DNA of 64,000 nucleotides, taken from NCBI GenBank assembly GCA_951406725.2, contig OX597823.1:88598001-88662000 (forward strand). Reading direction: 5' to 3'. The notes under the pieces were generated by a model. The model saw nothing but the letters and a program-made list of their open reading frames with translations, did not search any database and was not told the origin of the DNA. The translations under genes and the position numbers were made by a program. The stretch is from Octopus vulgaris (Eukaryota). Positions 2,953 to 58,974 of the stretch are shown in pieces; position 1 is the stretch's first letter; the number at the start of each line of letters is the position of its first letter.

Positions 2953-4988
2953 TACATATATATAAGCATGTATGATGTATGAGTCTACGACTGTAACAGC
3001 GTTTGTAATTTATCAGTTACATTATGCCTGGACAACTGCTGCGTACGTAAGACGTCAAAGATATCATTTCATAACCAAAGACATGTCAACACTAGAAGGG
3101 GGTATTATTATATGTCAGTACATATGTCGCCGCCACATAATCATGAAATGCATTCATATCCATATACTCATGTGGATATACACATGTATGCATCCATACG
3201 TACTTAACAATTACATCTATGTATACCTATAGTCATGCATCCATACTTTCGTATACGTATGCATCATTCCAACCGTCTGTCCATTCATTCATCCAACCCT
3301 CCATTTTTCCTCTCTATACAGACATAGAATGCATAAGTACTCACATACAGGCTTTCATCCATCCACCCATACATTCATACATACACGGTTGCATGCATGT
3401 ATGCATACGTATGATACATACCTGCATATATGCATACATATATACATACATATACAAACATACATAATACATACATACATATTAGATACATACGTACGTA
3501 CGTACGTACATACATATATACATACATACATACATACATACATACACACACACATACACATACATACATACATACATACATACGTACAGACATGCATACA
3601 AACATACAGATTACATACATAATACAATTAGATGGCTACAGATTCAGTCAATCACTGGAACGGTAAAAACCTGTAAAGAAACTTTCTAGAAGTTTATCAT
3701 TTAAATATGTATGAGCATGTCTACATATGCAACTATAAACATGAGAATACATACATAAAAGGAAACATACAAATCTGCACATATACATACATACATACAT
3801 ACAAAAATACCTTGCTTTTGATGTTGAGCTTCCAATGGAGAAGCATTTGATCTAGGTTAGAAACCGTCTCTATCTCTATTAGCAAAAAATCTTGAAATAA
3901 AACTGAACATTCAGATGCGTGCATACCCACCCATGCACACATATACATACATTACTATATACATAGATGATGGCTGCTAAATTGCAAATGAGTACATTCT
4001 TCACTGGCAATGCAATGCTTGTCCAAAATTGTGGTTCCAATAAGGATTGCACAATACCTCGTAGACCCTCTTTTCCCTATTGGCATTACCTAGAGTCAAA
4101 TCAAGGCAGGATATCTAATGCCAAGATAGGTCGTAGTGTGTGTAATATGGGGGTGTTATGAACTCAAGTGCAAGTAAAAGATTCTCGAATTATCCAGTGC
4201 CATTCATTGCATATCAGGCTCAATATCAGAATGACTGTCTCCTAGCGACATGCTTTAAAAAAACACTGAGGACACCTCATTCCTATCAAGCCGGACACCA
4301 AAAACCGGTGCTATTCCTAGATAGTCGGATTCCTAGATAATCGATTGCCCGTGCTATTCGTAGGTGGTCGATTTACCTACACTGGATTCATCTGTCGTTT
4401 TGACAGGTCATGTTTTTTCGTCCGCTTCCTCTTCAAGGAAGACCAGGCTAGCCTGGTGCGGTGACGTTTTAGTCATTGACGACCCGGTCATGCTATAGAT
4501 TGTAATGGATACCATTTTAACAGTGGTACTCGAGATAGTACGCACAAGAGGCATTACAAGTGATCTGTCATACCTACAAACACACATACTTATATACATG
4601 CATACATACTTATATACATGCATACTCCAAATACTCTACACCTACATGAATACATGCAAAATTACCCTGTTGATGTTCAAATTCCCCCAAAAAGTTACTT
4701 CGATCTAAATTGGAAACCGGCTCTTTCTCTATTGGCGAGAAATCTTGAAATAAAACTGTTGAAACACTACTGTTACAACCTGGGACCTTGAAGACTGCTA
4801 TAATGCATGAAAGTATATTAGTACCCTGATATTTTTTATTCAACATTTCATCTGTTCAATAAGACAGTCAATACTTCATTTTATTTTACTATATATATAT
4901 ATTATTTATACTATATATTCTATATTCTACATTAATATTATAAAGAATATAAGACATAAAAAACACAGAGTTGGAACTTCTTTGAATA

Positions 4989-5024
<36 letters not shown>

Positions 5025-5158
5025 TATGTGTATATGTACGTATATATGTATGCATACATACATATACACATATCATATATAACGGGAAGCTTTATGAAAA
5101 TAGACAAAAGACGAAGGCAGGTGGGAAACAAACAAACAATTCTATTAGTATGGCGCTC

Positions 5159-5190
<32 letters not shown>

Positions 5191-5212
5191 GCATGTATGT
5201 ATATATATATAA

Positions 5213-5415
5213 AGTTAATCCAAACAAGAAAACACAAAAAAACAACAACGCGAGGACGTGGAACAAATAAAGTATTATTGGACGCTCAGGAAAGAAGGGA
5301 AGAAGGAGGGTTTAACGTTTCGAGCGGAGCTCTTCGTCGGAGACAAAGGAGAAGGAAAGATCCCGAGAAGGGAAGACAGAGGAAAAAAATCGCCAGCGGT
5401 ACTCACGAGGTCACA
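5213..5415 (-). mobile_element. Short repeat with minimal hammerhead-like motif (Penelope-like terminal fragment), copy 1
   Basis: Closely matches 27666-27830 (AGTTAATCCAAACAAGAAA..CAACAACGCGAGGACGTGGAACAAATA..GTATTATTGGACGCTCAGGAAAG..GGGTTTAACGTTTCGA); starts at the edge of a TA/TATG tract. Confidence 0.75.
5310..5344 (-). ncRNA. Minimal type I hammerhead-like motif, U4C core variant
   Basis: Minus strand: GUCU CCGACGA A GAGC-UCC-GCUC GAAA CG UU AAAC. Perfect 4-bp helix II, palindromic AACGUU in place of helix III, GUU triplet, helix I with one mismatch. Confidence 0.55.
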
Positions 5416-6331
5416 TATATGATATATATGAGTGTCTATGTATGTATGTATGTACGCGTACATACTTGCATATATTCACACACATATAAAGAAGATATGT
5501 AAGACTTTACAGGAGTAACTAGACATTCAATTACATTTATGAATCATATGCATAAAGCAGGCACAGCTCTGCACACTTACTGACAAAACATACTTCCTAT
5601 ATCCACACGTACAACTACACCTGACCTTGCTGATGACATTAAAATGCTAATGAAAGAGCCTTGGTTGCAGGTTAGAAACTGCCTCTATTTCCGTTGGCGA
5701 GAAATCTAGAAATAAAACTAAATAATAAAATACATATTTATACTATGTAAAACACTTCAACTGTCAGTGACCACTTTGAATCTAATAACAGCTTAAAGAT
5801 ATCTCAAAGTACAGCATACATGCCTGATTTCATGTAGAATATTTCAGTGTCGCCATTCAGTTAAATCTGACTCTTTATCCAACACCGTTTTTCGATACAT
5901 AATAGTCTCATATAATTGACCTTTCTTATTCAACAAACGGAAAATCGTTATCTGTCAGCCGTGGTGATTGGATGATGAGTGTAGGTGAATGCATAAGAGA
6001 ATGTCTCACAGAGCGAATTATCTTCTTCCAGTGCTTCTTCTGTCTATCACCTATCTACGTATTTCAATTCAAAGGGCCAACGAGCAGAGATATCCTTAAC
6101 ACGGTCACTCGGTCAACTCTCCTCAAACCACATCATATGATTAAAAAGAAAGAATTATTGGATTACTTTGACTTACGTAGACTATATGTGAATATAAGTC
6201 ACGGCTGGAAAATCTTTGATCATAGTTGGGATCGATCAGGATGGCCATGGGGTTATTAGACATCAATAAAAATGTCTATTGTTATTATCATCATCATTAT
6301 CACCATCATCAGCGTCATTATTATCATTGTT

Positions 6332-7020
6332 AAGGCGGCCAGCTGGCAGAATCTTTAACACGTCGGGTAAATACTTAGCGACATTTCGTTCGTCTTTACG
6401 TTCTGAGTTCGAAATCTGCCGAGGTCGACCTTGCATTTCATCTTTTCGGGGTCGATGAAACAGTTACCAGTTAAACACTGGGGCCGAAGTAATCGATGTA
6501 TCCACCCCACCCACCCCCGCTGGAATTTGTGGCATTGTGCCAAAATTTCAATCCGCTATTGTTGTCATTGTTAATGTTAATATTAATATGGTGAGTTGGT
6601 AGAATCGTAACCGCACTGGTTAGCGGCATTTCTTCTGACTTTACGTTCTGAGTTCAAATCCGAACGATGCCAATATTGCCGTTCATCCTTTCGGGGTCGA
6701 TAAAATGGTGTACCCGTCATGTACTGGTATCGATATAATTCACTAATCTGCAGCTCTCAAAACTGCTGGTCTTTGTACTTAAAGCAGAAAATATGATAAT
6801 TATTAAGGCGGCAAGTTAGTAGAATTGCTAGCGCGTCGTACAAAATAGTCAACGGCAATTTTCTTCTGGCTCTTTATGCTGTGAGTCGAAATTCCACTGA
6901 GGCTAGCTTGACTTTATATTCCTTGGGAATCAATAAATTACCAATAAATAACTAGGGTCGACGGTATCGATGAAATTCCCCGGTTATATTCCTGGACTTG
7001 TGCCAAAATTTTAAAGAATT
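6332..7020 (+). mobile_element. Three head-to-tail SINE family B copies (6332-6550, 6590-6790, 6805-7020)
   Basis: Each has (AAGGCGGCGAGCTGG)CAGAATCG..GTTCTGAGTTC(A/G)AAT..GAGGTCGAC..TTCATCCTTTCGGGGTCGAT..TACCAGT..CACTGG..TTGTGCC with variation, separated by ATT/ATC-rich spacers. Confidence 0.85.
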
Positions 7021-7399
7021 ATGTTTTTTATCATAATTATTATCATTATTATTATAATTACATTTTGGCTGTCTTTTAATTTCTGCAATTTGTTCTCATG
7101 TCTCAACAAGGCCAACAAGATTTTGCATCTTGAAGATACTGACAATTGAGATACCAAGCATCTCAATTGTTGTTGTTCTTGTTCCTGCTGTTGATTTGAT
7201 TCAGTTTCGTTCCTTATTCCTATATGTGGTATGCGGATTATTGCCTAACACATGCTAACACATGCAACCTGGTCTTAACTGATTGGATGTGCTTATATGT
7301 ACATGACAGACATTATCTAGTATTGCATTATTATCATTATAAAATTGCTGACCTTGTGCCAAAATTTGAAATCCTTATTATCATTATTATTATTGGTAA

Positions 7400-7618
7400 T
7401 GTGGCGAGCTGGCAGAGACTTTAGCCCACCGGGCAAAATTCTTAGCGACATTTGGTCCGTTTTTATATTCTAAGTTCAAATTCCACCGTGGTCGACCCTG
7501 TCATTCATCCTTTCGGGGTCGATAAATTAAGTACCAGTGAAACACTGGGGGCGATGTAATCGCCTAGTCCCTTCCACAAAATTTCAGACATTGTGTCTAT
7601 AGTACAAAGGATTATTAT
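7400..7618 (+). mobile_element. SINE family B copy
   Basis: GTGGCGAGCTGGCAGA..AGTTCAAATTCCACCGTGGTCGAC..TTCATCCTTTCGGGGTCGATAAATTAAGTACCAGTGAAACACTGGGG; ATT tail. Confidence 0.85.
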
Positions 7619-8554
7619 TACAATTGGTGGTCAGGGGTATCTTGGACAGTGGGGTTCATCGATTATCTCTAGAGGTCATCCTGTATCAAGAGGGCTCATC
7701 TCTATCCTTCCGTCCCACACTTTTTTTTCTTCAAATCTCTCTACACTATGTATATTTCCCTTCCTTTTCTTTGTATACCGAGTATACTTATTATTATTTT
7801 TGTTTCTTTTTTCATTTAATTATTTCATCATTTCATTATGTCTGTCTTTGTATTGCTCCCTCGCCTTTCCCCTACTGGCAAATAAATGAAATATCATCAT
7901 TATTATTATTATTATTATTATTAATATTTTTATTATTATTATTGAACCCGCCGCCTATGTGGACAAACAAAAAAAACAAAATTTTTGGTTTTGTTGTTTG
8001 CAGTTCTTTGTGGTTCAGACAAAATCCTGATATTATATTTATGTACTGTTAAAGAGAAAATTACTCTTTTATAACTGAGACTATTCGGCTTCTGGTGAGA
8101 AATGAAAATAGGTTGCAGACTAGACTTAATTCATTGGCTTCTTATCTAATCTTCTATGGAATCCACGCTGTATTTCGCAGCAGCCCATTTTAAATGACTG
8201 TGGATATGCCGAATCGATAGCCTAAAAGACAACTAGAATAGCGGTCGACAGATTCTGCTATGTAATCTCCGTTTTTATGTGTCCATAACTAAGTGTTCGA
8301 TAAAAACTGAACAGGGTCATTCCACGTTCATTTAGCCACATGTAAACATTGCAGGAAGTGTGTAATTTAAAGCTATAGGAGGAGGCGCCTGTGAAACACT
8401 TTTAATTGATTCACACGCTTGCGTTACTGACATATGTGTAAATGAATGTAATTAGACTAGTATTTTATCTTATGTAGGATTACCAAGCCAGCCAGAGTTG
8501 TTCACTAGCCACAATATTGGTTATACGTGAAAGTCAATAATAATGATTGCATAG

Positions 8555-8717
8555 CTTTCGTCTTTACAATCTCCGTTGAAATTCCGCCGAGGTCGACTTT
8601 GCATTTTATCTTTTCGGGGTCGATGAAATAAATACCAGTTGAACACAGGGATAAATGTACTGGATTAGCACCCCTACCCGACAATATTAAGACTTGTGCC
8701 TATAGCAGAAAGTATTA
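8555..8717 (+). mobile_element. SINE family B, 5'-truncated
   Basis: AAATTCCGCCGAGGTCGACTTTGCATTTTATCTTTTCGGGGTCGATGAAATAAATACCAGTTG..TTGTGCCTATAGCAGAAAG. Confidence 0.8.
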
Positions 8718-10041
8718 TCTAACTGTTGTCCCTCTTCTTTTTGTAAAGTTAATAATTTACTGAAAAGTAACGCAATGCTTGATGCACACTACATTCATGA
8801 TCTCGTCCTACTGATGAAATTCAATAAGGTCGAAATTGCAGTTATATACAACTTTTAACGATACAATGATTAAGAGAAAAATTAAAAGAAAATTTAGTCA
8901 AATGAACACACAAAAATAATTCACTTCATTAGTTTTACACTTGATTAAAAAGAAAATATGTAAATTATATATTCGTAGGAAGGAGATTCATACTATAGGT
9001 AGGTCTTTTCAACACTATGCGATCACCATAATTACTTCGGTAAAAAAAAAAAGACCAACTCAGAGATTACATTGAGTAACTACTAGTAATGCCTTAAATT
9101 CCCACACTTTCGCGTCATCAGGCCGAGTACCAGAGACCGGTGTGTTTCTCGACAGAGCTATATTGCTTGACAAGTATTTTTTTTTTTGCCTTTCTTCGGG
9201 CATTTTTTACAAGTCATCATATTTTCAGCTAGATACATAGACGTTTGCTACACCTGCCTTGCAACTTAGGACCCGAAAACTGGAACAAATCCCGCAACCA
9301 GAAAACGGTAGTGTAAAAGCCTTTAAGTTTACCCCTTGTCCACCATCTTAGATTGTTGAATAATTTTATCGATCTCGGATGGCTAAATGGGACATTTAAG
9401 ATAGAAAAGATTTTTTCTTATTTTTTGTTACACAAAGTGAGATAAATGTTTCCAACGCAAGGAATTCGAAAATACCTTCAGGTTCCAATCTTGTGGAAAG
9501 CTACAGAGTGACTGTGGCTCTGCTAGAAATTGAAGTTAAGTACCCCTAAAAACGTGCCATATTTGAAAAAATCGAGAGACATTGGATGAGATTGTTTGGA
9601 GAAAATGCTTGCAAATGAGATAGGAGGGTCATGGCCGGAATACTTTGTTATTAGGTATGCATGATCAGAGCTAAATAACGACTGCATTTACGTCATTCAC
9701 TGCGATAGCTTAATATTGATTTCTCAAAGCTGGCAAGAAGAATTGACACTCTTTGCTAAGCGAATGAATTCCCGCGTCTTATTTCTTTTTTTTTTTTGTT
9801 TTTGTTTTTCTCATTATTATTGTATTTATATTTTATTGTTATTTCATTTATTTTCTTTCTAGAAAACATTTAATAAAAATGGAAAGCAATTTAAACAAAA
9901 GCAATGTATGTCAAACGAAATGATTTCAACCGGAATTGAAAATTGAAACCGACGTGTGTGTGTGTGTATGTGTGTAAGCGCATAATTTTATACACACACA
10001 CATATATATATATATATAATATATACAGTACATACAAACAT

Positions 10042-10094
<53 letters not shown>

Positions 10095-10366
10095 AGTGTG
10101 TATGTATTGTATATATGCATATAGATAGATAGATGTATATCTACGCATTTTTCTATCTGTATGTGTGTGTGTGTGTGAGTGTGTGCATAAAAGCTTCATA
10201 CTTATGTTTAGTATGAAAATATTAACCCTTGGAGAAGATGTGAAATGATTTAAATTATTTTTAATAGAAGGAACAAATAACTATCGGAATCCCAAAACAA
10301 ATAGAAAGCTTCAATAGTAAAAAGGTAAGATCGAGCTTTACCTGCGGGATTCCAAACCACGTATCT

Positions 10367-10644
<278 letters not shown>

Positions 10645-10825
10645 ATTCATAAATGGGATCTTTTTGTTACAGATATAGATATATGCGTATGTGTTTGTGT
10701 AAGTGTGTTTGAGGTGGGGTAGGTGCCTGGGTGTGATCAGAATTTAATTCTTCTCCTCTTTCGAAATTCGTTTCTCTAATTATACATTGATTGATTATTT
10801 ATTGCCTGCGCATACGAAATCCTAC

Positions 10826-10994
10826 CCTCAGCCACAAATATATGATGCTGGCCGAGAGAGAGATGTGCTTGTGTAACAGTTGCTATCGTTCATATGTTCA
10901 GCGTTTGTAGCGCAAGTGATGCAGTGAATTGACTTCTCGCCAGAAGCTAAATCAACTTGCAGATAATGTCCCACTCGGCGCCTAACTCTTGGCT
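10826..10994 (-). other. Possible exon (unique sequence with splice-like borders)
   Basis: Minus strand: TTCCATATTCTCAG|AGCCAAGAG...GCTGAGG|GTAGGA. No recognisable protein; the longest frame ends in TGA just before the donor. Confidence 0.2.
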
Positions 10995-11613
10995 CTGAGA
11001 ATATGGAAATATGCAATGAAGTATTTAAATAATTTAAATGGTTTTCTAATAGAGATTTTACACACTTAACACGTATATATATACATGGACACGCACACAC
11101 ATACGCGCACATGCACACACACACAGACACACACACACACATAAGTATACATATGCACTGCCAATTATTGATTGTGGTTAACCTTGTTCAAAATGGACGA
11201 ACACCTTTTGCACACATACTCACGCACACTCTCACATATGCATATGTATGTGTGTGTATGTAAGTATATGCGTCAAAGTGTATGTATGTATGTATATATA
11301 TATGTATATAAATGTATGCAATTTTAAACACTATTGGATTTTACTCATGAGGTATTAGAATCTTATATATATATACCATTCTGCCTAAATAATGAATCTA
11401 CAAATGCAATATCCCTGCATATCACACATCTATTTCCATTCCTCCACTTCATTCTCTATTTTGTATCTTATCTAAAATAACTATTGCTTAACCATCTTCT
11501 CACACCGTCTCTAATGAAGGGATATAATAAATATCCTAGAAGACCTATTTATATATGTTCTAAAATCTACACAGCCTTGTTTTTTTTTTATCTTATTACG
11601 GAAAAAATTATAC

Positions 11614-11648
<35 letters not shown>

Positions 11649-12227
11649 TACGTATATGCACACACACTTACGCACACAAACTCATACAAGATGGAGAGAA
11701 TCAGAGACAGATACGCACAAGCACACACAAGGAGTGATTTGTTTGTGCGGGGTGGGGTTATGACAGTGAGTGTGAGAACCTGTGTGTACTTGTGTGCGAG
11801 TGTATACGGACAGGTACAGCATTGGATGACAGACTGCTCCGATGAATTGAATTTGAAAAAAAAAATTCGCTTTTGTAAAATTTCAGACATCTGAGAAAGC
11901 CAAGACGCAAGCAAGCACGATAAAAGCAAATTCACAGATTCGCACGCTTGTTCACACAATGGCTTTTACGGATGCGAACATCAAAACACCTTTCACCAAT
12001 CACACAGTGATGCCTTTTAGAACACAGGTCAAGTAAAAGTTCCCTGCATTGCCTATACACATGAGTATTATTTGTCAATTTCTAATTTACTATTACTACT
12101 ACTACTACTTATTATTATTATTATTATTATAGACGTCGAACAGTATACAATATCGTGGCATTGTTGATTGAAGATATTGTGTCTACCGGAGATTTGTACT
12201 GTTTGTCAAGTCATAACATATTGTCAA

Positions 12228-12890
12228 TGCGACGCGCCGACAGAATTGTTAGCGCAGCATAGGACAAAATGTAATGCGGCATTGCTTCGGACCCTACATT
12301 CTGAGTTCAAATTCCACCGAGGTCAACTTTAAATTACATCCTTTCCGGGTCGATAAAATAAGTACCAGTTGAGCACCGGGGTTGGGGGTAATCTAGTATC
12401 ACCCTCCACCGAACTTGCCGGTCTCATTCTAAAATTCAAAGTCATTGCTGGTATTATAAATGCGATGCGCAGTCAGAATCGTTGGCGCACCGGAGAAAAG
12501 GCTTTCCCACATTTCTTCCGTCTCTTTACGTCATGAGTTCAAATTCTGCCAAGGTCGAGTTTGTCGTTAATCCTTTTGGTGTGGATAAAACAAAATTCTA
12601 TCAAGTAGTAGAATTAATATAATCTATTTGTCCCCCATCCCGCTACAGTTACTGACCTTGGGCCAAATTTGAAAGAATTATTTGAAAGAATTATTGAAAT
12701 AATTACTATAAATGTTAAGTCGGCGAGCTGAAAGAAACGCTAGAATGTTCGACAAAAATGATTTGCGGCATTTCTTCGGATTTCACATTCTGAGTTCAGA
12801 TTCCACCGAGGTCAACTTTACTTTTCACATCATTTTAGGGTCAATAAAATAAATACCAGTTCAACACTGGGTCGATCTAATTGATTTGTA
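12228..12890 (+). mobile_element. Three head-to-tail SINE family B copies (about 12228-12440, 12462-12680, 12720-12890)
   Basis: Repeated CAGAAT(T/C)GTT..TGAGTTCA(A/G)ATTC..AGGTC(A/G)A..GTC(G/A)ATAAAAT..TACCAGTT blocks, downstream of an (ACT)/(ATT) tract. Confidence 0.8.
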
Positions 12891-13551
12891 TTCTATCCAA
12901 GTAGTTATTTTTATTATTAATGTGTGTGTGTGTTTGCTTATGTATGTGGGGGGGTACATCTACATTGTGTGCACGAAAACATGCTCAAAGACAGGGAAAG
13001 GATTTGAATAGTAGACAAACGATGTAAAATGTTATCATTTGAAAGTACCATTTTTCATAACTCCTATACCTACTTTCACTTTCTCTATGGTGATTCATTT
13101 TTTCACTGCTCTCTTTACCACGCATGTACATATACATACGTGCGGTTACGCAGAGCGAAATCAGGCGCGTATACGCACAGAAGTCAAGTGAAATTTTCAT
13201 CTACCTTGCAAATGCGTATCCATATAATTGCATATTATGGATAGATGTACATTTATCCCAATGTACTCATGCATGTATCATCAAACAGCACACATATATA
13301 TATACATATATATATACATACATATATACATACCAACATACATACATACATACATACATACATACATACATACATACCAACATACATACATACGTACGTA
13401 CACACACACTGAACTTTATATATCTATATGCTGTTATATCAGTTCATTGTTTCATGCTAAGAATGTGTCTATCTTGCTATATTGTTACTATCAGTGAACC
13501 TGACTGACTCGCTTTTTTCTCTCTTTTCCACTCTGTTTCTCTCACTCTCTC

Positions 13552-13590
<39 letters not shown>

Positions 13591-13746
13591 TTTCTATCTG
13601 CTTAAATTAGTTCTTTCTTTCATTGTATGAGTTTTTATATATAGATAGATGTATGTCTAATATCCATCGATTTGTCTGCCAGTCAGTCAAGTATTGGCTG
13701 TCAGTCTCTGTCTTCTTTTCAGTGGCTTTCTCTTTCTGTATATGTG

Positions 13747-13778
13747 TATGTGTGTCTGCATGTTTATCTGTGGGTGCA

Positions 13779-13831
<53 letters not shown>

Positions 13832-13851
13832 TCACAGATAAACATGCAGAT

Positions 13852-13858
<7 letters not shown>
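13747..13858. repeat. 34-bp inverted repeat around a (TA)n spacer
   Basis: TATGTGTGTCTGCATGTTTATCTGTGGGTGCATA (13747-13780) versus TATGCACTCACAGATAAACATGCAGATACACATA (13825-13858); 2 differences. Confidence 0.85.
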
Positions 13859-13886
<28 letters not shown>

Positions 13887-13959
13887 CATACATGTATATG
13901 CATATAACATTGCATAAATATTTATATATACACACGTGTTTATGCATACACACACCAAC

Positions 13960-14270
<311 letters not shown>

Positions 14271-30850: not shown

Positions 30851-31250
30851 AAGGCGGCGAGCTGGCAGATTCGTTAGCACGCCGGGCGAAATGTCAGCGT
30901 TATTTCGTCTGCCACTACGTTCTGAGTTCAAATTCCGCCGAGGTCGTCTTTGTCATTCATCCTTTCGGGATCGATTAAATAAGTACCAGTTACGCACTGG
31001 GATCGATGTAATCTACTTAATCCATTTATCTGTCTTTGTTTGTCCCCTCTGTGTTTAGCCCCTTGTGTGTAGTAAAGAAATAGGTATTTCGTCTGCCGAT
31101 ACGTTCTGAGTTCAAATTCCGCCGAGGTCGATTTTGCCTTTCATCCTTTCGGGATCGATAAATCAAGTATCAGTCGCGTACTGGAGTCGATCTAATCGAC
31201 TGGCCCCTTCCACTAAATTTCCGACCTTGTGCCTAGTGTAGAAAAGAATA
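30851..31250 (+). mobile_element. SINE family B, young copy with duplicated body
   Basis: AAGGCGGCGAGCTGGCAGATTCGTTAGCACGCCGGGCGAAATG..; the block TATTTCGTCTGCC..ACGTTCTGAGTTCAAATTCCGCCGAGGTCG..CATCCTTTCGGGATCGAT occurs twice (about 30901 and 31085). Confidence 0.9.
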
Positions 31251-45911: not shown

Positions 45912-47290
<1,379 letters not shown>

Positions 47291-54067: not shown

Positions 54068-54197
54068 AAGTGGCGAGCTGGTTGAGTCGTTAGCACGCTG
54101 CACAAATGCATTTCGTCCATCTTTACATTCTGAGGTCGAATCAATCGACTAGTCCTTTCTGCCCAAATTTAGGCTTTGTGCCTATAGTAGAAAGAGT
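54068..54197 (+). mobile_element. SINE family B, internally deleted
   Basis: GTGGCGAGCTGG..GTCGTTAGCACGC..ACATTCTGAGGTCGA..TTGTGCCTATAGTAGAAAG. Confidence 0.75.
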
Positions 54198-55687
54198 TAT
54201 TACATATTCTGGCTTCTTGCTGATGCAAGCACTGCTTGTATGATGTATAAAATTTAATATTTCAACACAATATATAAACAATGGTGGGACCTAATTGGTG
54301 TTGGGAAATGTCAACTTAAAATATTTCAGAGAATATAAGATTTTCAATATATATATATATATTATTTTTTTTTTTTACTAGACCGTGAAATTATTCTACT
54401 TTAATGACCTAAAGAGAATATATTGAATATTCAATGCATTATAGAAATACTTTGCTTTCTTTGAATCTGTTAATAAAGAGTCGAACACTAATGCTTTTGT
54501 TTATTATTTTCTTTCTTTTGAGCGCCGATAGTTACTGGGAAATTATTTGGAAATTAAAGCACTAAAGGGTTTTTTGTTCTTTGATTTTAAACAGAAGAAT
54601 AATCGTAATTATTTTAAAGCTCAAACAATGAGAAACGAAGGATAGCAACATGTATTTAACAAAGTAATGGCATCAGACTTATAATGGAGAGAAGTTATGC
54701 GGATGCAATTGAGTGGTTAAAAACAGAAAAAATAAAGTTATATAAACTCTCAATTTAACATGAACAGGCGGATATCGCTTTGTTCTTTAATGAGACAAAT
54801 TCATTTAGATACCAGAAATCCACATAGGGAAGAAAGTTACATTAAATCATTAAATGTAGCTCTGTTTTATTCATTTTGAATTTTGTTTAAGTTTTTATGT
54901 TTTTGAAATCTAAATTATATCAAAGCTTCCACATTTGCAAAATAATGTAACGAATGTTATTGATAAAATAAAATAAAATAAGAAAATATGATATTCTGAG
55001 GATTTCATTCGGAAAGATTTTTTATCACATCTTAGAATAATGCTATGAGATTATGCTGATAATTTAATGGGGATTCTGAAAGTGAAACACAATAGGTTAC
55101 TCTATATAATTTATGATTCCACATTCAGATGTGACCTCGATTTTATCGAATATAAAAAAGCAAAAATCAACAAATTATTTTTGTAAATAAAATAAACGAT
55201 ATAATATTTCTGAAAATATAATAATCTGTCTGATTCATGTGGATTAGGGACCTATTATTTCAGTTCTGAAAGGCATATTATTGTAACCATTTTAATAGCA
55301 ATCATTTGAATAAAAGATAAATGATCCAATATGTTTATCACTTAGACAGCGGATGAATAGCAACGTCCATGACCCAATTCACATATTTTTATATAAGCAA
55401 GGAGTTATATCCAAACACGTGTCCTGACCCAAATGTTTGCCTATGAAGATGAATGCTACTACATAGATTATAAAAATCTAACACGCACTGAAATATAAAG
55501 ACCAATTTTTATCTATTTTTAACCTTACTGGAGAGGATTATGAATGCATTGTTTTGATGCACTACACATGGCACAGGAAGCAAAAGTGGAGTTGCTTTGT
55601 GGTGGCGTATCTTTTAGAAATAACAACTAAATCTTCCTTCAACCACATCGCTCCCATTTTAAAAATCATTATCAAATCTTATTATAT

Positions 55688-55860
55688 AGGGCGGTCAGCT
55701 TGAAGAATCATTAGCACGCTGGACAAAATGCTTAGCGGTATTTCGCCCATGGCTACGTTCCGAATTGAAATTCTGCTGTGGTTGGCTTTCGATAAATAAA
55801 ATACCAGTGAAATGCTGGGGCCAAATGTCAGGCCTTGCGCCCATAGTAGAAAGGATTATT
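55688..55860 (+). mobile_element. SINE family B, internally deleted
   Basis: GGCGGTCAGCTTGAAGAATCATTAGCACGCTGGACAAAATGCTTAGCGGTATTTCG..ATACCAGTGAAATGCTGGGG..ATAGTAGAAAGGATTATT. Confidence 0.8.
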
Positions 55861-56154
55861 AAATACAAATATTTACTTAAAGATTTTGGGCTTGCTGTTT
55901 AACTGTTAAATTGCAAATTACAGCAATTGTTATATCGATTGAGCTATCATTAATCTTAGTGTCACTATCTTTATTACTATCATTATAATCTTCTGTATTT
56001 ATTTGAAGCGCTTGAATGTGTATATCTGTGTCCGTAGTGTGTGAGGACGTACAGACACAAACGTACACACACATGCATACATGCATATGTATATATAAAA
56101 ATAATATATATATATATATATATATATGTACAGACGCACACACATACACACACA

Positions 56155-56710
56155 GGCAATATTAAATCGCTGAGTAAGAAGTAAACAATAGCAGTAAGGA
56201 ATCGTAAAATATAATTACCAAGTAAATGTAGCAGTCCCATAGAGGACGATGCTACTGTTGTTTGTAGCCCCAGGAAGACATCTCCTCCAGCTGGCTAACG
56301 ACACATTGTCTGTGTCCATCCTCTATGGGACCTCCACATTTAGTTGGCAATTATATTTTACGATTCCTTACTGCTACAGTTTACTTCTCGCTCGGAGATT
56401 TAATATTGCTTATTTCTCCCTTTGCGAGATCAGCGACAGTTTGTCACTGGACAAATCATATAGTACTTTGCGTGTGGAATGAGTTTTCAGCACTAGCTCG
56501 TAATTATCACACACTGATGACGGGTTACTACCAGAAACCCGGGTCTGTGTGTATCACGTAAGACTACAGATGGGAACGATGTTTTCCCCTCCCAAATACT
56601 AATGGAACACAAACAGTGTGTGGTTAACCAGCTGAAGGAGATGTCCTCCTGGGGCTAAAAACAACAGTAGGATCGTTCTCAACATTTAGATGGCAATTAT
56701 ATTTTACGAT
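56155..56710 (+). mobile_element. Hammerhead-bearing non-coding element (non-LTR retrozyme or Penelope pLTR-like): ~360-bp unit, partial tandem, with inverted 5' copy
   Basis: Forward 56320-56710 reads Y-Z(hammerhead)-X-Y'(partial); ACATTTAG.TGGCAATTATATTTTACGAT recurs at about 56336 and 56682. 56155-56319 is an inverted X+Y copy. Both sides are flanked by CA/TA microsatellites. Confidence 0.75.
56508..56551 (+). ncRNA. Minimal type I hammerhead ribozyme motif (canonical core, GUC site)
   Basis: CACACA CUGAUGA C G-GGU-UACU-ACC-A GAAA CCCGGG U C UGUGUG. 6-bp helix I, CUGAUGA at 56514-56520, GAAA at 56534-56537, palindromic ACCCGGGU helix III, predicted cleavage after C56545. The 10.1-11.1 pair is a G-A mismatch. 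Confidence 0.75.
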
Positions 56711-57180
56711 ATACATATATACACACACACACACGCACACACACATACACACACACACAAGCACACACACACACATATGTATATATTAGAAAAAGTGTGG
56801 AATCTTTGGTACAGTTAGGTATATTTGGAAAAGAAAATCTGACTTCCCTTGTAGTTCTAATCAATTTAATTTCCTAATAATATAATTTTACACATAAAGA
56901 ATCTTGCAAACCAAATCCAAAAACGAAATATAATTTTACAGTTTGGTTTTTAGAATTAGTACGTACGTTTTTTAAAAGATTCCTCGTTAACATTTCTGGA
57001 GAATTGCCCTCCTGCTGATTCCATTTGAGTAGTTGACTTCTGGTGAAAAGTATAATTGTCAGATGTTTTTACAAATTCTCTTAATTTCATAAAGAGAAGC
57101 TTCGGTAATATACTATGTTAAAGATGAGTTTAAGTGTGTGACTGGGCGGGGTGTTTTGAGCTGCAAGATACGTGTATTTT

Positions 57181-57600
57181 AAGGCGGAGAGCTGGCAGAA
57201 ACGTTAGCAAGCCGGACGAACTTCTTAGCAGTATTTCATCTGCCGCTACGTTCTGTGTTCAAATTCCTCCGAGGTTGACTTTGCCTTTCATCCTTTCGGG
57301 GTCGATTAAATAAGTATCAGTCACGCACTGGGGTTGATGTAATCGACTTAATGCGTTTGTCTATCCTTGATTGTCCTCTCTGTGTTTAGCCCCTTGTGGG
57401 TAGTAAAGAAATAGGTATTTCGTTTGCATTTACGTTCTGAGTTCAAATTCCGCCGAGTTTGACTTTGCCTTTCATCCTTTCAGGGTCGATAATTTAAGTA
57501 CCAGTTACGCACTGGGGTCGATGTAATCGACTTAATCCCTTTGTCTGTCCTTGTTTGTCCCTTCTATGTTTAGCCCCTTGTGGGCAATAAAAAAATAAGA
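57181..57600 (+). mobile_element. SINE family B, young copy with duplicated body
   Basis: AAGGCGGAGAGCTGGCAGAAACGTTAGCA..; body duplicated, with the same junction TTTAGCCCCTTGTG.GTAGTAAAGAAATAGGTATTTCGT as 30851-31250. Confidence 0.9.
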
Positions 57601-58974
57601 TATGTGTCTTTTGATCAAAAAGGGATGATACCAGAGAGAACAAAATATAAGGTTACTTTTGGAATGTTTGTTGATAGAAATGTTCAAATGGAACCACCAG
57701 GAGGGCACTTCATAAAAGACTCCTTAAAAACCTCACCGCCACCCAACTTCCCCTTCAATTAATTATCTTGTTTTTACCATTCACTATTCGCTTTCAGCTG
57801 TTGTTCATCAACACTCCTTCACTCCCACAGTTATTAACAAATCGCAACCCCACCTCAGACGCACCCAAATCTCTTATATGTAGAATCACACTGTACAAGA
57901 AAACATGAGATCAGTTTGACAAGCAAGAAAGTTCTCCAGAAAGGTTTCCATGGAAACTTTAAAACATCTCCCTACCGAAGTTAACAAAGAACTTACTAGT
58001 TCTAAAAATCATATTATTAGGAAATTAAATTAAGTAGAACTACCAGTGAAGTAATTTTTTTCCTTTTTCAAGGAAAATTTATGCAAATTAGCTGATATAT
58101 ACCACACTTAAAAATAAGTATTGGCGATGATTTTCTCGATTAAAGCCTCTGTCCAATGACTGAAACAAGTAAAAGATAGAAGATGTACATGTGTGTGTTT
58201 GTGTGTGTGTGTGTTTTCGCACGCGCGTGTTGCCATAACTATAATTTCTTTTTACATTTTTCCTTCCGTCATAAAAATTTATTAACATGTGAGGACACTA
58301 CTAGTAATAAAACTCATAGATTCTTGCAGCCATACAACTTCCATATAAAGCATAGTGGTTTGCAGCAAATTGGGAATTTATTAAAATTATGAGTTACTCT
58401 TCGTTGTATAAATATATTCGGCTTTTGCGATTGATAAGTGTTACATTTCAAACGAATGGAATCTCTTTGCGTGTGCAATTCCAATTTCGGCTTCTGATCA
58501 TTTTGAGATCGGGGAAATCGACTAGTTTACTTATAAGGAAATCGGTAACATCAGACACTTTATTATACTCGTTGCATAATCTAAGTACATTACGATCAAT
58601 AAAAAATATTCTATTTTAATAACCGCCTATAGAGACTTACATTTTCAGTGACCATTTAACATGTATATATATATATATACATTGAAAATATTATATAGTC
58701 ATAATATATAGTCTGAATATAAAATATAACATAAAATATTAGAATATTGAGATTCATTCCAATATAAATGGTTTATCTTTTATAAATTTCGTTTATTACT
58801 TATTAGATCAGAAGGATGCTGGATATCATTTTGTGAGTATTAGACGTTAACCATAAAATGGTGACTTGCCTAGGTTAAAATCTCCATGTGGCAAATTCAC
58901 CACAAAATATTAGAACAAAAATTAGATACGTGATAACAGCGTGGACGACATAAGTTAACCATTTAGCGACACAC

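Follow-up and report, generated by a model that had tools for sequence, protein, structure and literature searches.

The window, a 64,000-nt stretch of Octopus vulgaris DNA, contains at 56155 to 56710 what is probably an old insertion of a 357-bp non-autonomous mini-element. We suggest that it was mobilized in trans by a Penelope-like element (PLE), and that in intact copies its hammerhead would act only as a dimer. The insertion consists of a closed unit with recognizable ends and a type I hammerhead motif. It lies in a microsatellite, and it belongs to a family of many copies. The enzyme, the template, and the cleavage reaction proposed below would account for this arrangement.

Anatomy of the insertion

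The forward part of the locus (plus strand, 56317 to 56710) comprises 1.13 units, with a recurrence period of 357 bp. This period agrees with the original prediction of a non-coding unit that recurs after about 360 bp. One full non-coding unit with a GC content of 43% occupies 56365 to 56710, as delimited by joints, bridging pieces, and alignment. The unit is 357 bp long in the family and 346 bp long here, with an 11-bp deletion after about 56679, as read from the 3' recurrence. It is preceded by a 48-bp 3'-end fragment of the preceding unit (plus strand, 56317 to 56364), which forms a partial tandem, or mini pLTR. This fragment is identical to 56678 to 56710 at 31 of 33 positions and runs on from the sequence of the inverted copy.

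The inverted copy lies on the minus strand at 56156 to 56316, head-to-head with the forward part. It had been predicted at 165 bp, and by self-alignment it measures 161 bp. It is a 5'-truncated copy of the 3' part of the unit plus a tail, and is identical to 56605 to 56710 at 92 of 105 positions and to 56319 to 56409 at 80 of 91. The tail of about 45 bp (minus strand, 56156 to 56200, equal to 56365 to 56409) is the 3' end of the element extended into its 5' start; in the alignment it is found on the inverted arm only. At the inversion junction, sequence and fold reveal a 17-bp hairpin palindrome (56300 to 56316) with a 6-bp stem and a 5-nt loop. An assembly artefact was ruled out, as the two arms are about 12% apart and the junctions are seen again in other copies.

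TA/CA microsatellites form the target on the left (56051 to 56155) and on the right (56711 to 56786). The flanks share an exact 18-bp match (56137 versus 56738), the right member of which does not abut the element. Because the flanks are microsatellite and this match lies off the right edge, no target-site duplication can be called.

We place the natural 3' end of the element at 56710, equivalent to 56364 one unit earlier, because the locus ends there and because the depth of matching contigs steps at the equivalent boundary, 56364|56365. Sharing with sister families could be responsible for part of this step. By the same two observations, position 56320 or so, which the original prediction took as the start of the unit, would be a point of 5' truncation and inversion and not an end of the element.

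The partial tandem, the adjacent inverted and truncated copy, the junction palindrome, the tail, and the microsatellite target together make up the anatomy of a PLE insertion. PMC8557442 names partial tandems, inverted copies, and microsatellite targets among the features of such insertions and gives tails of 30 to 40 bp; PMC3846280 describes junction palindromes at PLE inversions, with a 31-bp tail in one case. The predicted permuted, longer-than-unit insertion with PLE-type termini is thus borne out by the bridging pieces, the tail, the inversion, and the palindrome. The 45-bp tail is slightly longer than the published 30 to 40 bp, which counts against our preferred reading.

The unit has little coding capacity. 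Its longest ATG frame, on the circularized sequence, has 78 codons, and ARAGORN predicted 0 tRNA genes, which gives no sign of a tRNA head. Neither a reverse transcriptase (RT) nor a GIY-YIG domain was found in the 104 of 160 window open reading frames (ORFs) of at least 85 aa that were scanned, 56 low-complexity ORFs having been dropped. The locus therefore lacks the RT plus GIY-YIG ORF that marks an autonomous PLE.

There is no further copy of the element elsewhere in the 64-kb window, which does hold other repeats. A SINE-like repeat at 57180 to 57597 has two 184-bp units that are 86% alike and further copies in the window (for example, 6330 to 6748, 12281 to 12887, and 30851 to 31201); we take it to resemble octopus SINEs. 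Diverged repeat copies at 54076 to 54206 and 55687 to 55865 share their start with the SINE head at 57180 (families D4, D6, and D7). Nested inverted arms surround the SINE pair between 56825 and 58071 (56834 to 56889 with 58005 to 58060, 56971 to 57003 with 57932 to 57964, and 57001 to 57028 with 57684 to 57711); they probably represent an old MITE-like element that received an insertion later. An inverted pair of 30 nt, partly TA repeat, lies at 54333 to 54362 and 58667 to 58696, 4.3 kb apart and 93% complementary. A broken Mariner transposase remnant occupies 46266 to 47114 (Pfam HTH_48, E = 4e-11; Transposase_1, E = 8e-16).

The hammerhead motif and its predicted folding

A hammerhead descriptor scan of both strands of the 64 kb returned a single match, at 56508 to 56551 on the plus strand, where the original prediction had placed a hammerhead with core boxes, a GUC site, and a palindromic helix III. 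Helix I consists of 6 bp, CACACA (56508 to 56513) with UGUGUG (56546 to 56551). Three more base pairs, read by eye, may extend it (56502 to 56504 with 56553 to 56555), so that the motif as a whole spans 56502 to 56555. The core boxes are CUGAUGA (56514 to 56520) and GAAA (56534 to 56537). The 8-nt palindrome ACCCGGGU of helix III lies at 56537 to 56544 and the GUC site at 56543 to 56545; the predicted cut is after 56545. All that a type I hammerhead requires, CUGANGA, GAAA, NUH, and helix I, is present at 56508 to 56551.

The description near-canonical is too strong for this copy: its helix II has just GGU/ACC, lacks the core-adjacent pair, and is scored as 0 by the descriptor. The Rfam hammerhead model, proposed as a check, gave no match at its gathering score and nothing at E ≤ 10 over 55800 to 57000 beyond low-complexity matches. 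The G10.1-C11.1 pair beside the core, which had been expected in the family, is absent in the standard register, where C and A flank helix II.

Other copies differ from this one at helix II, which is one base short here: it lacks a C that is present in many of them. The inserted C follows 56530 in 3, 14, and 17 contigs of the DNA runs, and at least one other listed piece is likewise without a gap at the helix II base. Consensuses of loose ends at 56531 to 56532 (five rows of 21 to 35 contigs each, agreement 0.68 to 0.81) retain CUGA-N-GA, and the sole core variation is at position 7 (A, G, or U). The 4-nt loop 2 varies among copies, and the C/U changes in helix II are wobble compatible. In many family copies, therefore, helix II has 4 bp and a 4-nt loop that varies, and position 7 varies as well. 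The A before GAAA appears to be kept, because no A-to-C change reaches 20% in any run and because of the alignments that start at 56531 to 56532; an A-to-G variant is possible at this base, 40 of 56 variant rows having been seen. We infer that the C...A flanking of helix II holds in many family copies.

A motif that arose by chance or died long ago, carried by a repeat that spread through DNA-level mechanisms, is a very improbable account of the hammerhead. Although the missing Rfam match and the predicted misfolding of this copy (see below) would be expected in that case, such a motif (helix I of at least 6 bp, helix III of at least 3 bp) arose only once when the whole window was dinucleotide-shuffled 100 times. 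Moreover, the copies vary at position 7 and in loop 2, and the insertion anatomy is of the retroelement type. In other collections, metagenome contigs gave 0 matches to each of two patterns, and four viral-contig matches to a loose hammerhead pattern were taken as chance, none of them having a helix I.

Fold prediction for this copy pairs 56521 to 56526 with 56536 to 56541 at a probability of 0.9 to 1.0 and gives helix II a probability of 0.0. By nearest-neighbor energies, which leave out the core contacts of a hammerhead, the monomer reaches -5.0 kcal/mol as a hammerhead and -19.7 kcal/mol in its best fold; for the dimer, the values are -30.7 kcal/mol as a double hammerhead and -43.7 kcal/mol in the best fold. 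The ribozyme of this copy is therefore predicted to be misfolded and inert, and the motif does not look like a working ribozyme here, given the lost helix II base and the favored inactive fold. Because the inactive fold is favored even as a dimer, folding lends no support to dimer cleavage of this copy. On visual inspection, the family letters still allow five of the six alternative pairs. This suggests that the alternative pairing could lock the monomer in the family; escape as a dimer does not follow from it.

Such a lock is part of a more far-reaching reading, which we consider doubtful. It proposes that a whole lineage, probably that of the octopuses, has a retrozyme family that would make 357-nt RNA circles and leave dispersed copies with the complete PLE insertion signature. 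The 5' strand of helix II, including its non-canonical C, would pair with the helix III palindrome and lock the monomer, and tandem transcripts would be cut as dimers. If this were true, the dispersed copies would be a direct genomic record of PLE enzymes mobilizing a ribozyme-made circle.

Copies of the family and the 3' region

Words of the element are present in 20 listed runs, which come from 10 studies and carry five organism labels. We aligned four runs to 56317 to 56673 at 80% likeness: three DNA runs (X1, X4, and X10, from three studies with organism labels A, B, and E) and a presumed RNA run, X9. At 80% identity or more, X1, X4, and X10 yielded 1,332, 1,552, and 1,736 matching pieces of contigs, respectively, most of them less than 95% identical. 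The prediction of a multicopy, ORF-free unit thus stands. Summed depth in mid-unit is about 4,000 to 14,000, against 17 to 60 for single listed contigs, and is not a copy number. Several related animal species thus carry the element in numerous diverged copies. These copies are probably dispersed in the genome, as judged from the divergence of the contig pieces.

This copy differs from the majority letters of the family by about 6% or more; in X1 the majority differs from it at 23 of 40 listed variant rows (16 more rows exist). If the octopus rate quoted in PMC13282606 applies, the insertion would be, very roughly, 15 to 20 million years old. In X9 there are 22 pieces, one of which has 6 differences in 255 letters; contig depth is only about 2 to 8 over the hammerhead region and 44 to 72 over the 3' segment, a pattern that neither favors nor disfavors a circle.

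Across 56364|56365, summed depth drops 2.3- to 2.5-fold in X1, X4, and X10. A second step, at 56400 to 56413, is not clean, as depth climbs again at 56425 to 56448; this is a further point against our preferred reading. The long pieces of the DNA runs that are listed number 24, with 4,810 shorter pieces besides. The junction 56364|56365 is crossed, with at least 31 letters on each side and through to the hammerhead core, by 7 of the 24, each with 26 to 44 differences from this copy; 7 of the 24 span the cut site, again with at least 31 letters on each side. Therefore, the unit is closed in other copies too, since these pieces join the 3' end, the 5' start, and the hammerhead. With listed pieces crossing the junction and listed pieces spanning the cut site, reverse transcription would have passed through an uncut or rejoined hammerhead.

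Joints in the DNA runs that go back 351 to 353 letters, with 4 to 5 letters between, give the unit length only. Joints that go back about 350 letters are no evidence of arrays, because the first 48 nt of the query lie ahead of the natural 3' end. None of the 24 listed pieces spans a whole unit, the contigs being short, so that arrays can be neither seen nor excluded in them. An opposite-strand joint of 56319 to 56547, one base off the cut site, occurs at another locus in one contig each of X1 and X4. Two other opposite-strand joints (56352 to 56614 and 56395 to 56532) lie away from the cut site; such joints are too few to interpret.

The 3' region (plus strand, 56572 to 56710) is rich in hairpins, as seen in folds and depth tables. 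The 3' part of the inverted copy forms stacked hairpins (z = -4.06 versus shuffles); the corresponding region of the forward copy is no better folded than its shuffles (z = -0.44). A two-copy RNAalifold gave 0 compensatory pairs out of 22. Segment 56629 to 56664 is about 10 to 100 times deeper than mid-unit in the three DNA runs, with up to 938,000 summed in X10. Its loose ends lead into related but different sequences on either side that preserve the hairpins. This points to a segment with a structured 3' signal that is common to much more abundant sister families, and these may include the autonomous partner.

The same segment bears on the possibility that the unit is all or part of the pLTR of an autonomous PLE, perhaps internally repeated, and the locus its 5'-truncated stump. 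We find this quite unlikely. In its favor, segment 56629 to 56664, far deeper than mid-unit and continuing into other sequences, is common to larger families; PLEs with tandem hammerheads exist (PMC7229834), and most PLE hammerheads are single motifs in truncated copies (PMC4209133). However, the 5' start reaches the hammerhead within 150 nt in 7 of the 24 listed DNA pieces, so there is no space for an ORF between them. In addition, none of the best 18 loose ends of the DNA runs (644 more exist) falls within 56365 to 56507.

Proposed mobilization and comparison with known systems

We return to the non-autonomous mini-element as the preferred reading. In this scenario, a source copy or a head-to-tail pair would be transcribed, and a PLE protein would bind the hairpin-rich 3' end and nick a (TA)/(CA) repeat. 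Reverse transcription would start at the fixed 3' end (56710) and run through the uncut hammerhead and 48 nt of the next unit. A second cDNA, in the opposite orientation, would end at the hairpin and give the inverted arm with its tail. The PLE reverse transcriptase/GIY-YIG endonuclease would thus act in trans on a template slightly longer than a unit. In intact members, the hammerhead may cut only as a dimer, via the 8-nt palindrome, and so free units from longer transcripts. Non-autonomous PLEs with head-to-tail copies are described in PMC8557442. The helix sizes of the family (6-bp helix I, 4-bp helix II) speak against this reading, being nearer to the canonical retrozyme than to the PLE minimal type.

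Helix I and II sizes of this canonical kind would instead fit a bona fide non-LTR retrozyme, an alternative that we regard as possible but unlikely. Transcripts of tandem source arrays would be cut by paired hammerheads into 357-nt monomers and ligated into circles, a PLE RT would copy these for more than one round, and the locus would be a dispersed 1.13-round product. A length of 357 bp and 43% GC fit the mussel retrozymes, for which PMC7229834 gives 350 to 390 bp; copies continue across the cut site and across the point where the 3' end meets the 5' start, and the circularized unit folds better than shuffles (z = -2.6). The axolotl Amex2 hammerhead, with U-U at the base of helix II, tolerates this mismatch and cleaves as a dimer, according to PMC7229834. 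However, the locus has a single hammerhead, no array was found among the listed pieces, and the insertion terminates at a constant 3' end, which lies some 165 nt away from the cut site. A circle is also unnecessary, because Naiad PLEs without canonical hammerheads have the same partial-tandem and inverted anatomy (PMC8557442). Only one of nine predicted Xenopus dimers cleaved in a recent preprint (Li, Clavereau and Pollet 2026, bioRxiv 10.64898/2026.07.22.740005).

That preprint treats animal retrozymes as non-autonomous PLE derivatives, describes and counts dispersed monomers, and takes a tandem of two hammerheads as the criterion of an active retrozyme. The unit here has the size and composition of a retrozyme (non-coding, 150 to 450 bp, low GC, type I hammerhead), and to that extent the label retrozyme-like was apt; with one hammerhead only, the locus falls short of the tandem of two. 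The element would work like a retrozyme, yet we do not class it as one, because the locus lacks the tandem of two hammerheads and a circular RNA is hypothetical. Since the literature describes non-autonomous PLEs as well as retrozymes derived from PLEs, the choice originally posed between a retrozyme and an ordinary pLTR is less sharp than it seemed.

The case for PLE mobilization of retrozymes has so far been built on co-occurrence and on resemblance to pLTRs. This claim predicts the kind of footprint seen here, in which a closed, non-coding unit with a hammerhead bears the inversion, the palindrome, and the tail of a PLE insertion, and many copies in several species could reveal whether the templates are circles or tandems. 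Within reach of the literature searched, this would be the first such family reported for this animal group; the idea itself has precedents, and the copy studied here has decayed. We found no description of the family in the literature and supplements searched, including PMC8967140, and the main text of PMC7229834 has neither "octopus" nor "cephalopod" in it. It counts against the preferred reading that the search for an autonomous partner yielded none: four 9- to 14-mers from the element led to no octopus entry among the Naiad/Chlamys/Hydra consensuses of one published set. The family may already be catalogued under an automatic name in Repbase, Dfam, or the O. vulgaris Zenodo library (PMC13282606). 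O. vulgaris has 190 PLE families that make up 6.83% of its genome (PMC13282606).

Among known systems, non-autonomous PLEs and PLE insertion units (Craig et al. 2021, PMC8557442; Arkhipova et al. 2013, PMC3846280) resemble this element in anatomy and in a type I hammerhead with a palindromic helix III. The element here is ORF-free, only 357 bp long, and has a tail of about 45 bp. Metazoan non-LTR retrozymes (Cervera and de la Pena 2020, PMC7229834; Li, Clavereau and Pollet 2026) share with it the non-coding unit, a GC content below 45%, the type I hammerhead, the head-to-tail junction, the many copies, and a proposed PLE mobilization. In contrast, this element has 1.13 units, one hammerhead, and full PLE-type ends; any array, cleavage, or circular RNA is putative.

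The hammerheads themselves can also be compared. In File S2 of PMC8557442, PLE-X1_cBra has the same C...A mismatch between core and helix II as this family, and many Hydra-clade PLEs, which have microsatellite targets, have U...U at that position. The C...A flanking is therefore not unusual, as it is printed for PLE-X1_cBra, with U...U for Hydra PLEs and Amex2. Both groups have a 3- to 4-bp helix III with a 0- to 3-nt loop, as here; they differ in sequence and lie within RT-coding elements. The same file prints a PLE hammerhead of Octopus bimaculoides, Hydra-1_Obim, which differs from that of this element and ends within some tens of bases of the 3' end, versus about 160 nt here. In the PLE minimal hammerheads (Cervera and de la Pena 2014, PMC4209133), helix II is long, at 7 to 8 bp, helix I is short, and the G10.1-C11.1 pair immediately precedes GAAA. 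In this family, by contrast, helix II has 4 bp and helix I has 6 bp, and an additional A stands ahead of GAAA. The minimal hammerheads are like those of this family in their palindromic helix III, in the extra base after position 9, and in their presumed action as dimers.
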